NCBI GenBank assembly: GCA_020440645.1
Contig: JAGRNR010000004.1
Coordinates: 12,762-76,761 of the forward strand
Direction of reading: 5' to 3'
Source: a bacterium
Lineage (GTDB): Bacteria > 4484-113 > JAFGCY01
Length of the DNA: 64,000 nt
Shown: positions 60,250 to 63,021 of the stretch, piece by piece
Layout of the letters: every line of letters begins with the position of its first letter
Position numbering within the stretch: the stretch's first letter is position 1
Notes under the pieces: generated by a model
The model's input: the letters and a program-made list of their open reading frames with translations, nothing else
What the model was told of the DNA's origin: nothing
The model's database searches: none
Position numbers and translations under genes: made by a program

Positions 60250-63021
60250 ATGAACAGGGGAACTCTAGGTTTATTGAGCGTACTCTTGGTTCTGTTCCTC
60301 GCCGTGCCCGGTTGGGGAACCGAGCCCGGCGGCATGTCGTTTCTGGATCTGCCGGATCGCGATGTAGTCGTAATTGACACTGGCGACCTGGCACTCAAGA
60401 GCGACATGATGGTCAACAAACTGAGTCCCAGCAGGCTCGAAGTGCTCTATCGCTACGATGGGGTGATTCCTGCTGTACCGCAGACGAGCGGAGACCTCGT
60501 GACTTCCGTGGACATCAGTCCGCGGTCCGAGGGATTCATGCTTGTGCTGACGCTCTCCGACTCCGTGCCCACCACTGGTGAGGCCGCCTACCGGGAAACC
60601 CCGCTGGGCAACGGCCGTACCGCTATCGAGGTCTTCAGCGCGGGTTCCACCCGTTCTGCCTTTGATCTCGGGTGGCTCGACAACTCCTCTCCGCTTGTCC
60701 CGCTTGCCGTGCCTGCTGCAGCGCCGGCTGGACGTTCGGGCTATAGCGGTGCGGAGTATGACGCCGGTAACAAGACCCTGGTGATCAGTGGTGTCGGTAC
60801 CAGCGGATACGAAGTCAAGGAGCATGATGTGGTCGGCCGTGTGGACGTCCTGCTTGCTAACGCTGACTCCACCTCCGCCAGCACCGGCATGATCCACAAG
60901 AGCAATGATGGTGCAGTCACCTTCGTTGACGTGGTCCAGTCAAAGGTCTCGGATGGCCTGGTCGTGCGCGCCCGCATGGGCAGCGAAGTCGGCCTGGTCC
61001 GCCAGGAAGTCCGCGGTGACGACCTGTACCTGACCTTCGGCAACAAGGCCAGCTCCCTCACCAGCCTGGATGACAGCAAGCCGGCCCCGCTGGGTATGGG
61101 CACTTCCACCCAGCAGGTTCCGCTGGCACAGCCCAAGGCACCTGCTCCTGTGGGCGGCAACGGCCTGGGCAACTCGCTCAGCGCCTCCGTCGGTGCCGTG
61201 GATCCCGCCAGGCTTGACACTTTTGAAGGTATCAATGGCCAGCGCCAGGATGTCCCCTCTGTTGATCAGATCCTGCAGATGGCCAAGGAAGATGCTTACC
61301 GCTACGGCAAGGATGCGGCCGGCAAGGATGACACCTACGGTGACTACCAGCTGCCTGGCTTCGCCGGAGATGACGAGCTCCTCAGTGAGGTGCGCGTCAA
61401 CCTGAACGCCGCCGGTGGTTTCAGCCTCTACCAGTTCCTGATGTTCATGTCTGACATCAGCGGCATCTCCATCGTGATCGACCCGTACTGGCTGGATGAG
61501 CCGACGGGCGGTAACGAGGACCGTGAGCCGCAGGATCCGGGCCAGCTGCCCGGTGGTGGCGAGGGTGGTCCCGGATTCCGCAGTGCGGACATCTTCTTCC
61601 CGCAGCTTGGCGGAACGGGTTCCATCGTCGGTAACCTGGTCAACATCCCCTTTGACCAGGCCCTGGACCTCGTCCTCAGCACGCACAACCTCAAGAAGGT
61701 CGTTTATCGCGACCCCTCCGATCCGTACAGCCGCCCGGTGATCCTGATCACCAGCAAGGAGCGTCTGGAGCAGGAGCTTGAGGGCACCAACGAGATTGCC
61801 CTCTACCAGCTGCACTATGCGGATCCAGATCAGCTTTACGACATCCTTGACGACCTGAACCTGCTTCCGGGCGTCGACAGCGGCTGGTACGTCTATGACG
61901 GCGGCGGCTTCGGCGGCAATAACGGTGGCGGCGGTGGTCAGGGTGGCGGCCGCGGTGGCGGTGGCCAGGGCGGCGGCGGCGGCGGTCGCGGTGGCGGCGG
62001 TGGCCGTAACAGCGCTGACCTCGGTGCAGCCATCAACATGGGCGAAGCCTCCCGCAGCAACTACTTCGACGTCCAGCAGACCGGTCCCATGCAGGCGATT
62101 GGTGGTGGTGGCGCCGGTGGTGGCGGTGGTGGTAACGGTGGCGGCGGCGGCAACGGCGGCGGTAACGGCGGCGGCGGTAACGGCGGCGGAAACGGTGGTT
62201 TCGGCGTGAGCCTGCCCACCGCTAAGTCCGGCCTCGTCGTGATGCGCGGTACCCCGGAGACCCTGTCTGCGATCCAGAGCCTGATCGGCCGCATCGATCG
62301 TCCGCCCAAACAGGTCGCGATCAATGTGAAGGTCTACCAGGTCTCCGAGGATCCGGAGAAGGTCTGGGGCCTGCTTCGTGCGACCGGCCAGAACGACCGC
62401 ATCACCGCTCCCTATGAGAGTGGTTCACTGACCGTGAACATCCTGCCCAAGGGTGGGGTGCTGCTGGACGAGAACTACAGCGCCGCCTTCGACTTCCTCC
62501 AGACGGAGCGCAAGGCGAAGCTGGTGACTGAGCAGGAGATCATGGTGGTCGACGGCTTCAACGCCAACATGACGAACACCAGGACTCGTGGCCAGCTGTC
62601 CGGAACCCTCGTGGTGACCCCGGACGGACAGGTCATCAACCAGCCACAGTTCAACTCTGTCACCGTCGGTACCAGCCTGAACTTCACTCCGCAGATCGAC
62701 GATCGTGGCCGCATCACCATGACGCTCACGGTCAACCTGTCGAACTTTGACGGTCCTCAGCAGGAGGCCTCGGCCAACGGCCAGCAGGTCACCTTCCAGC
62801 CGACCATCAACACCAACCTGACCACGGTGCTGCGCATCGTGGATGGCCAGACGGTGCTGATCGGCGGTCTTTCCACGGTTGAGGATTCCCGCGTGTTCTC
62901 GGGCATTCCGTTCATCAGCAAGCTTCCGATCATCGGCCAGTTCTTCGGTCACACCCGTGAGGTGAAGAATGAGAGCCACATCTACATCACGATCGAAGGC
63001 AACATTGTTGACGACAAGTAG
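60250..63021 (+). CDS. Secretin (GspD/PilQ family outer-membrane channel) with Gly/Arg-rich low-complexity insertion
   Basis: Signal peptide MNRGTLGLLSVLLVLFLAVPGWG. N0/STN-like EVRVNLNAAGGFSLYQFLMFMSDISGISIVIDP. Secretin core LRIVDGQTVLIGGLSTVEDSRVFSGIPFISKLPIIGQFFGH. ~100-aa GGGGxGGG/RGG insertion. The ORF-track start 60142 is a TTG artefact. Confidence 0.85.
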   Translation: MNRGTLGLLSVLLVLFLAVPGWGTEPGGMSFLDLPDRDVVVIDTGDLALKSDMMVNKLSPSRLEVLYRYDGVIPAVPQTSGDLVTSVDISPRSEGFMLVLTLSDSVPTTGEAAYRETPLGNGRTAIEVFSAGSTRSAFDLGWLDNSSPLVPLAVPAAAPAGRSGYSGAEYDAGNKTLVISGVGTSGYEVKEHDVVGRVDVLLANADSTSASTGMIHKSNDGAVTFVDVVQSKVSDGLVVRARMGSEVGLVRQEVRGDDLYLTFGNKASSLTSLDDSKPAPLGMGTSTQQVPLAQPKAPAPVGGNGLGNSLSASVGAVDPARLDTFEGINGQRQDVPSVDQILQMAKEDAYRYGKDAAGKDDTYGDYQLPGFAGDDELLSEVRVNLNAAGGFSLYQFLMFMSDISGISIVIDPYWLDEPTGGNEDREPQDPGQLPGGGEGGPGFRSADIFFPQLGGTGSIVGNLVNIPFDQALDLVLSTHNLKKVVYRDPSDPYSRPVILITSKERLEQELEGTNEIALYQLHYADPDQLYDILDDLNLLPGVDSGWYVYDGGGFGGNNGGGGGQGGGRGGGGQGGGGGGRGGGGGRNSADLGAAINMGEASRSNYFDVQQTGPMQAIGGGGAGGGGGGNGGGGGNGGGNGGGGNGGGNGGFGVSLPTAKSGLVVMRGTPETLSAIQSLIGRIDRPPKQVAINVKVYQVSEDPEKVWGLLRATGQNDRITAPYESGSLTVNILPKGGVLLDENYSAAFDFLQTERKAKLVTEQEIMVVDGFNANMTNTRTRGQLSGTLVVTPDGQVINQPQFNSVTVGTSLNFTPQIDDRGRITMTLTVNLSNFDGPQQEASANGQQVTFQPTINTNLTTVLRIVDGQTVLIGGLSTVEDSRVFSGIPFISKLPIIGQFFGHTREVKNESHIYITIEGNIVDDK
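61897..62205 (+). repeat. Low-complexity GGC/GGT codon repeat region encoding two poly-Gly/RGG/NGG blocks within the secretin gene
   Basis: YDGGGFGGNNGGGGGQGGGRGGGGQGGGGGGRGGGGGRN … IGGGGAGGGGGGNGGGGGNGGGNGGGGNGGGNGGFG. Confidence 0.7.

Follow-up and report, generated by a model that had tools for sequence, protein, structure and literature searches.

The large gated channels of the outer membrane that serve type II and type III secretion, type IV pili and the export of filamentous phages are called secretins. One such protein is encoded in the 64,000-nt stretch of bacterial DNA analysed here (contig JAGRNR010000004.1, assembly GCA_020440645.1; hereafter the window), and the last periplasmic ring-building domain of this PilQ-like secretin is interrupted by an insert of 103 residues, 57% of which are glycine (59/103) compared with approximately 10% in the remainder of the protein. 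The insert is predicted to be disordered and lies within a single N domain; it has kept its length, its layout and its glycine-dominated composition whilst evolving in frame among orthologues, and glycine-rich tracts recur at the same site in other secretins. We consider it probable that the insert is a lineage-conserved disordered loop, a five- to ten-fold enlarged and glycine-dominated form of the variable loop of secretin N domains, which would provide the assembled channel with a collar carrying a tethered docking motif.

Composition and position of the insert

The insert (nt 61897-62205, aa 586-688, plus frame) reads DGGGFGGNNGGGGGQGGGRGGGGQGGGGGGRGGGGGR / NSADLGAAINMGEASRSNYFDVQQTGPMQAI / GGGGAGGGGGGNGGGGGNGGGNGGGGNGGGNGGFG; residue numbers throughout are counted from the TTG at 60142, which gives the 959-aa version of the open reading frame (ORF). 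The original prediction, made from the DNA sequence alone, had described at this place a flexible, glycine-rich segment of roughly 100 residues in two blocks, inserted into a secretin relative to the canonical N domains, and this description was borne out. The coordinates proved exact and the protein matches the Pfam Secretin family PF00263 (aa 786-957, E 3.5e-28, 98.7 bits where the cut-off is 27.5). When an AlphaFold model of aa 398-959 was compared with the PDB by Foldseek, all of the top 40 significant matches (40/40) were secretins. The predicted local distance difference test score (pLDDT) of the same model is 24-30 over aa 584-694, compared with approximately 68-79 on the flanks, and on this prediction the insert is very probably disordered. 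Between the two glycine blocks lies a semi-conserved core with the family consensus NSA...(A/V)xR.NYFDP.Q...P.Q, in which AlphaFold draws a low-confidence helix at aa 627-641.

In whichever frame of the window they lie, none of the other ORFs that are 100 aa or longer reaches 40% glycine in a stretch of 30 residues. With the secretin the only ORF in these 64 kb to have so glycine-rich a stretch, the insert is thus neither a product of chance nor a genome-wide habit. It holds two phenylalanine-glycine (FG) dipeptides, with a third just downstream. Two ORFs which overlap it, 61895..62209 (+, Ala/Val-rich) and 62061..62324 (-, Pro-rich), were considered and rejected as genes, being frame shadows of the runs of GGN codons.

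The original prediction had placed the segment between the N domains and the secretin core; however, both the Pfam match and the AlphaFold model put it inside the last N domain. A single Secretin_N match (aa 554-724, profile positions 3-69 of 69) is split by the segment and flanks it on both sides, and it is because the 103-aa insert divides the domain that the score, 27.6 bits, falls just below the cut-off of 28.2 bits. Before the insert the model contains a strand at 551-557, a helix at 562-571 and a strand at 579-585, DSGWYVY (E154-160, H165-174 and E182-188 in the numbering of the model); after it come a strand at 696-703 (SGLVVMRG) and a helix at 705-718, followed by the beta-rich pore domain, which agrees with the beta-alpha-beta-beta-alpha fold of a Secretin_N domain placed just ahead of the pore. 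The segment which follows the insert, aa 689-724, aligns to ILIRADESTNALVL... of XcpQ and to ITVDDRTNSIIAY of PilQ, and residues G581, W582, Y583 and Y585 on the preceding side are invariant among orthologues. As modelled, the insert lies inside the last, membrane-proximal ring-building N domain (the equivalent of N1/N3), after helix 1 and the GWYVY strand. Because the chain leaves and re-enters one fold of approximately 70 residues, the insert forms a loop rather than a linker between domains, and since both of its ends return to that same fold it can neither lengthen the secretin nor help it to span a thicker periplasm.

Conservation and recurrence

The sequence of the window is matched at 100% identity by CP060262.1, a closed metagenome-assembled chromosome recorded as 'Planctomycetales bacterium isolate HK-STAS-UBP7_A-1', of the poorly known candidate phylum UBP7. 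A scan of 185,579 species-representative genomes found 14 loci, all of them in UBP7-type or 'Planctomycetales' metagenome-assembled genomes, and a further 11 close homologues of the window secretin were found in protein databases. The full-length protein used as a query for homologues gave 15 hits and was swamped by low-complexity words; the same query with the insert deleted gave 17. At least 15 distinct orthologues from the UBP7 lineage, down to 44% identity (L010, L011), all keep an insert of 91-123 residues, of which 42-61% are glycine, and in each it is arranged as block, core and block; no loss of the insert was found among the full-length orthologues examined. The GWYVY flank is invariant and the core retains an R-x-N-Y-F-D-P-x-Q ... 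P-x-Q pattern, whilst the spacers of the glycine blocks vary by lineage (the window has N/Q/R, P0005 has I/A/Y, P0007 and L011 have S/Y, and L010 has F).

Comparison of four independent assemblies with 87-100% identity revealed no differences between the inserts other than insertions or deletions (indels), 3 or 9 nt in size, and numerous synonymous GGC/GGT changes. The glycine codon usage of the insert is that of the remaining gene, and Tandem Repeats Finder (TRF) detects imperfect repeats only (3-27 nt). The in-frame indels, the synonymous changes, the codon usage and the conserved layout together establish the insert as real coding sequence. The possibility of an assembly artefact or a frameshift was considered and rejected, as judged from assemblies and without reads, since independent Illumina and hybrid assemblies of orthologues keep the frame. 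On these sequence comparisons the insert is genuine coding sequence, selected for composition and approximate length, rather than the outcome of a repeat that collapsed or slipped during assembly. The gene has been assembled correctly, and its annotation should read PilQ-like secretin with an internal disordered loop.

The wider distribution of such tracts was surveyed from an exhaustive HMMER search in which aa 688-959 were compared with 1.84 billion cluster representatives, giving 14,869 secretin-domain proteins with E <=1e-3. The survey covered the best 150 of these 14,869 matches, among which were 137 anchorable representatives from outside the immediate family, with no more than 34% identity. 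Upstream of the anchor, the strand 2/3 motif, 25 of the 137 have a glycine-rich tract that is 15 residues or longer; in 20 the tract comprises at least 30 residues and in eight at least 60, and in 23 of the 25 it ends within 20 residues of the anchor. Some of the tracts are regular, being built from GGGGF or GGGGY repeats (P0055, P0062, P0072) or from GGGGL or GGQ repeats (P0175, P0070); regular GGGF repeats are found in only some relatives (L010, P0034, P0055, P0062). Several of the cluster representatives with a C-terminal secretin domain (P0054, P0069, P0082, P0155 and P0161) are 2,175-3,735 aa in length, far longer than any characterised secretin.

Large glycine expansions at the N-domain loop therefore recur, at the level of sequence, among environmental secretins, and glycine-rich tracts at this site are present in approximately one in five of the nearest clusters. 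Together with the insert itself, this distribution suggests that large expansions of low complexity arise repeatedly in the loop of the last N domain. The insert is therefore less unusual than originally predicted, as it is present in all the full-length orthologues examined from the UBP7 lineage and similar tracts are present in other secretins. No published account of glycine-rich loops in secretins, GspD or PilQ was found in the literature searched, and the recurrence of glycine expansions elsewhere appears to be undescribed; in structural studies, to our knowledge, the last N domain's variable loop has figured as a detail, short and left unresolved.

Possible roles of the loop

If the insert is indeed an enlarged variable loop, an assembled 12- to 15-mer would carry 12-15 copies of it, making up a collar, flexible and uncharged, at the ring just under the periplasmic gate. 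Most probably the glycine blocks, of approximately 35 residues each and with a possible reach of several nanometres, would act as entropic tethers, allowing the 31-aa core to dock on a partner much as the InvG loop does with its helix. Candidate partners are an adjacent subunit, the pilus and the alignment complex of PilMN. As a second possibility, the loops could fill and constrict the vestibule and be displaced on passage of the pilus, as has been proposed for the N3 loop of InvG. The orientation of the loops (towards the lumen or the outside), the partner of the core and any gating or docking role are inferred.

The proposed collar should be considered with caution, as several points weigh against it. 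Its placement in the oligomer is putative, and the AlphaFold monomer model of aa 398-959 is one of low confidence (mean pLDDT 54), built on a shallow family alignment of 22 sequences. A rough estimate gives approximately 110 kDa of loop (15 x 103 aa), which would over-crowd a lumen of 6-7 nm, and therefore the loops may lie at least partly outside it, or must leave it when a filament is there. Within the glycine blocks only composition is conserved, which is also what would be expected of neutral slippage in a permissive loop. Finally, there are two candidate sites for the insert, at opposite ends of a strand: between helix 1 and strand 2, with GWYVY as an extra conserved strand (the position seen in InvG and XcpQ), or in the hairpin of strands 2 and 3, with GWYVY as strand 2. 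A hidden Markov model (HMM) of the N domain was built from 97 canonical N domains and used to score variants of the window domain from which the insert had been deleted, giving nearly equal scores, 47.2 bits with GWYVY as strand 2 and 46.5 bits with GVSLP as strand 2. AlphaFold draws GWYVY as strand 2, with the insert after it, whereas in the local alignments with XcpQ and PilQ VSLP-TAKSG forms strand 2 and the turn, with the insert before strand 2. A related protein of approximately 600 aa in L013 and L014 has a complete strand-turn-strand-helix after the glycine block, which favours an insert before strand 2.

This related protein (L013 9071-10870, L014 9023-10876) has the same N0 domain, the same start of the ring domain, a GWWVY motif and the glycine block, and it ends in a short strand-helix without a secretin pore domain. 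L013 carries a separate secretin-like gene approximately 8 kb away on the opposite strand. The protein may be a secretin-less ring protein or the product of a split gene.

Amongst the alternatives to an enlarged loop with a docking role, the one to which we give most weight, while still thinking it unlikely, is neutral low-complexity expansion, in which replication slippage on GGC/GGT runs in a genome of 62% GC has lengthened a permissive loop whose only function is not to interfere. Drift of the spacers between lineages and the lack of conservation in block sequence are as this would predict, as are the indels which separate even orthologues of 87-89% identity, the imperfect repeats detected by TRF, and the variability and disorder of the host loop in other secretins. 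However, slippage does not readily account for a length held at 91-123 aa and a block-core-block layout kept down to 44% identity, for the conserved core motif and flanking GWYVY, or for the fact that no orthologue has lost the insert. Nor is there a comparable tract in the other ORFs of the 64 kb, and since similar tracts have arisen at this one site in many secretin clusters that are unrelated, some selective advantage, or at the least a bias specific to the site, is suggested. A soft gate resembling that of the FG-nucleoporins seems to us improbable; here the 12-15 glycine-rich loops would make a cohesive or entropic meshwork sealing the vestibule, either around a pilus or without one. The uncharged, glycine-rich and Lys-free composition would suit such a meshwork, aromatic spacers occur in some lineages, as GGF (L010, P0034, P0062) or GGY (L011, P0035, P0072), and a constriction of the lumen has been linked to the counterpart loops in secretins of the type II and type III secretion systems (T2SS and T3SS). 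Yet the loop of needle-bound InvG threads outward between N3 and N1, a lumenal location here is putative, and the mass of the loops is, on our own estimate, apparently too big for the lumen of the ring. The window insert, moreover, has only the two FG dipeptides and mainly Asn spacers, with no regularly spaced FG (or GLFG/FxFG) motifs, and spacer chemistry is not conserved. The same low probability attaches to the more elaborate proposal of a soft second gate or gasket under the beta-barrel gate, perhaps evolved to pass, and to re-seal around, a pilus carrying a pilin-like protein of 2,600-3,500 aa. Were this soft gasket to exist, it would be a selectively permeable meshwork and a bacterial analogue of the FG-nucleoporin barrier, having arisen repeatedly in many environmental secretins. 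The gel-like gate suggested in the original prediction finds neither support nor contradiction in these results.

Two further readings, both put forward in the original prediction, are effectively refuted. The composition and length of the segment could suggest an interdomain glycine tether that joins the secretin core to the N domains and lets the channel span a thick periplasm or cell wall; we regard this as very improbable, for the segment starts and ends within one Secretin_N domain, a loop of which cannot extend the secretin, and the actual linkers lie elsewhere (aa 300-415). Least credible of all is that the segment is an Arg-Gly-Gly (RGG) box, acting in nucleic-acid binding, for example in DNA capture during uptake through a PilQ channel, or driving phase separation. 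Some PilQ proteins have been reported to bind DNA, and block 1 of the window insert contains two RGG motifs and four Arg residues. However, an RGG box consists of di- or tri-RGG with spacers of no more than four residues; a di-RGG of this kind is found in only one of 15 orthologues (L008), and the two RGG motifs of the window lie nine residues apart. The number of RGG motifs ranges from 0 to 4 across the 15 orthologues, three of which have none, net charge is -2 to +3, Lys is absent and block 2 is nearly free of Arg. What has been conserved is an uncharged, glycine-dominated chain, and a role in nucleic-acid binding or condensates is therefore not supported.

Should the enlarged loop prove functional, whether it seals, constricts or docks through its tethered motif, a soft element would be added to models of secretin gating, and it would offer a tractable natural case of a periplasmic polymer brush that is disordered and uncharged. 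If it is instead neutral, it marks a highly permissive insertion site which would be useful for secretin engineering.

The secretin gene, its neighbourhood and known secretins

The mechanical ORF of the secretin (60142..63021, +) opens with the TTG at 60142 and encodes 959 aa; translation more probably begins at ATG 60250, to judge from the orthologues, which begin at an equivalent M-x-R-G, and an apparent N-terminal signal peptide follows this ATG. Sequence matches in the PDB are to MxiD, PilQ, InvG, GspD and pIV. Matches to the KH domains of FUSE-binding protein and to the linkers of single-chain variable fragments were also obtained and were discounted as homology, being due to glycine-rich linkers and to the KH-like fold of secretin N domains.

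Table 1. Features of the secretin gene and its surroundings, with positions in the window
Feature	Position	Strand	Details
Six large pilin/pseudopilin-like genes	41292..49330	+	Prepilin N-methylation motifs
3507-aa protein	49459..59982	+	N-terminal hydrophobic segment, PKD domains, weak sub-threshold T2SSK/GspK-like RVNINTASEEVL ('NINTA') motif
Secretin gene	60250..63021	+	Likely true start ATG 60250 (MNRGTLG...), 923 aa
AMIN-like beta-sandwich domain 1	60331..60636	+	aa 64-165; AlphaFold, Foldseek
AMIN-like beta-sandwich domain 2	60748..61044	+	aa 203-301; AlphaFold, Foldseek
N0/STN-like domain	61390..61776	+	aa 417-545; AlphaFold secondary structure, PilQ alignment
N-terminal half of last ring-building N domain	61792..61896	+	aa 551-585; strand 1 EIALYQL, helix 1 PDQLYDILDD, GWYVY strand
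Glycine block 1	61897..62007	+	aa 586-622, 37 aa; spacers F, N, Q, R; conserved Arg at end
Semi-conserved non-Gly core	62008..62100	+	aa 623-653, 31 aa
Glycine block 2	62101..62205	+	aa 654-688, 35 aa; spacers mainly N
C-terminal half of same N domain	62206..62313	+	aa 689-724; VSLP-TAKSG-LVVMRG strand(s), helix 2 PETLSAIQSLIGRID
Secretin pore domain	62497..63012	+	aa 786-957; Pfam, PDB profile alignments, Foldseek
PilM-PilN fusion gene, start	63134..64000	+	Continues past the window; full 640 aa in L001 (12993-14915)

The N-terminal region (aa 57-400) was modelled by AlphaFold as two beta-sandwich domains, for which the best Foldseek match is Myxococcus xanthus PilQ (3jc8_Qa, E 8e-5), followed by the AMIN-containing AmiC (4bin) and then by the B2 domain of Neisseria meningitidis PilQ (4aqz). 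Pfam AMIN has no match in the window secretin, the assignment being at the level of fold only, and the second of these domains aligns weakly, by profile, with the AMIN region of Pseudomonas aeruginosa PilQ. A disordered Pro/Ala-rich interdomain linker (aa 300-415) precedes the N0/STN-like domain, in which NIPFDQALDLVLSTHNLKK aligns to NVPWDQALDLVLKTKGLDK of the P. aeruginosa PilQ N0 domain; the Pfam STN match is weak (E 0.094). The N0/STN-like domain is itself split by a second disordered low-complexity stretch, rich in Gly, Pro and acidic residues (LDEPTGGNEDREPQDPGQLPGGGEGGPGFRSADIFFPQLGGTGS, nt 61492-61629, aa 451-496), which has a pLDDT of 30-40 and is partially conserved among orthologues. 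As modelled, the order of two AMIN-like domains, Pro/Ala linker, N0, one ring-building domain with the glycine insert and the secretin domain is the layout of PilQ.

The gene neighbourhood, as far as sequence comparisons go, fits a type IV filament machine. Directly upstream of the glycine-insert secretin an ORF of 2,580-3,500 aa with an N[IV]NTA motif is present in every orthologous locus examined (including L002, L005 and L008-L011), and the order of giant protein, secretin and PilMN is kept in all of these loci; the giant protein may be a giant minor pilin or a tip protein. The two ORFs after the PilM-PilN fusion (278 and 352 aa) carry no recognisable PilO or PilP signature. Further upstream, the six consecutive genes with prepilin motifs (340-618 aa) have weak matches to GspH/GspJ and to the 'Verru_Chthon cassette' proteins C and D. 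Just before this pilin cluster are two adjacent genes of the glyoxalase/bleomycin-resistance fold (38073-39941, +), which are apparently unrelated to the insert.

The subfamily of the window secretin is not decided by sequence, as the four curated NCBIfam models, SctC, PilQ, MshL and GspD, score alike at approximately 75-80 bits, far under their cut-offs; the PilQ model TIGR02515 gives 79.7 bits against a cut-off of 284.35 and the GspD model TIGR02517 gives 74.3 bits against 351. The periplasmic ring domains found are N0 and one ring-building domain only, compared with N0-N1-N2-N3 in GspD. Closest in plan is type IVa PilQ (AMIN-AMIN-N0-N1-secretin), which the window protein resembles in its two AMIN-like domains, its N0/STN-like domain, its single ring-building domain and its C-terminal secretin domain, and also in having pilM-pilN downstream and pilin-like genes upstream. 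It differs in falling short of TIGR02515, in having no recognisable PilO or PilP, and in the low-complexity insertions within its N0 and ring-building domains.

Likeness to the FG-nucleoporins is one of analogy only: an uncharged, glycine-rich, disordered chain would be present in many copies round a channel, with aromatic spacers in some orthologues, but there is no homology, FG is rare in the window copy, spacer chemistry is not conserved and the setting is the bacterial periplasm. Nearer parallels are found amongst the secretins themselves. [quoted passage not shown] In needle-bound InvG the loop is partly ordered and threads outward between N3 and N1, with a short helix that packs between subunits (PMC6155069). 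The window insert likewise interrupts the membrane-proximal ring-building domain after helix 1 and is predicted to be largely disordered, with a short internal element, which in InvG docks between subunits. However, the InvG insert is approximately 50 aa in length, is not glycine-rich and belongs to a T3SS, whereas that of the window is 103 aa in length, 57% glycine and bipartite, in a PilQ-like host.

In PulD a loop at residues 288-303 is unmodelled and 'N3 domain constriction sites' are described in the channel (PMC6882859). Profile alignments place NNGGQGGEQTGGGRPSN of P. aeruginosa XcpQ (5wln) and DGGQEGKEGGRG of P. aeruginosa PilQ (6ve2) immediately ahead of the strand 2/3 motif in the corresponding domain. 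These XcpQ, PilQ and PulD loops share with the window insert its domain, its glycine enrichment and its position immediately N-terminal of the D-x-(S/R)-T-N motif of strands 2/3; they differ in being 12-20 aa long and approximately 40-50% glycine, without an internal conserved core, the UBP7 insert being 5-10 times longer. On these alignments the model secretins already have, at this site, a loop that is short, disordered and enriched in glycine, and the UBP7 insert is best described as an enlarged, bipartite version of it.

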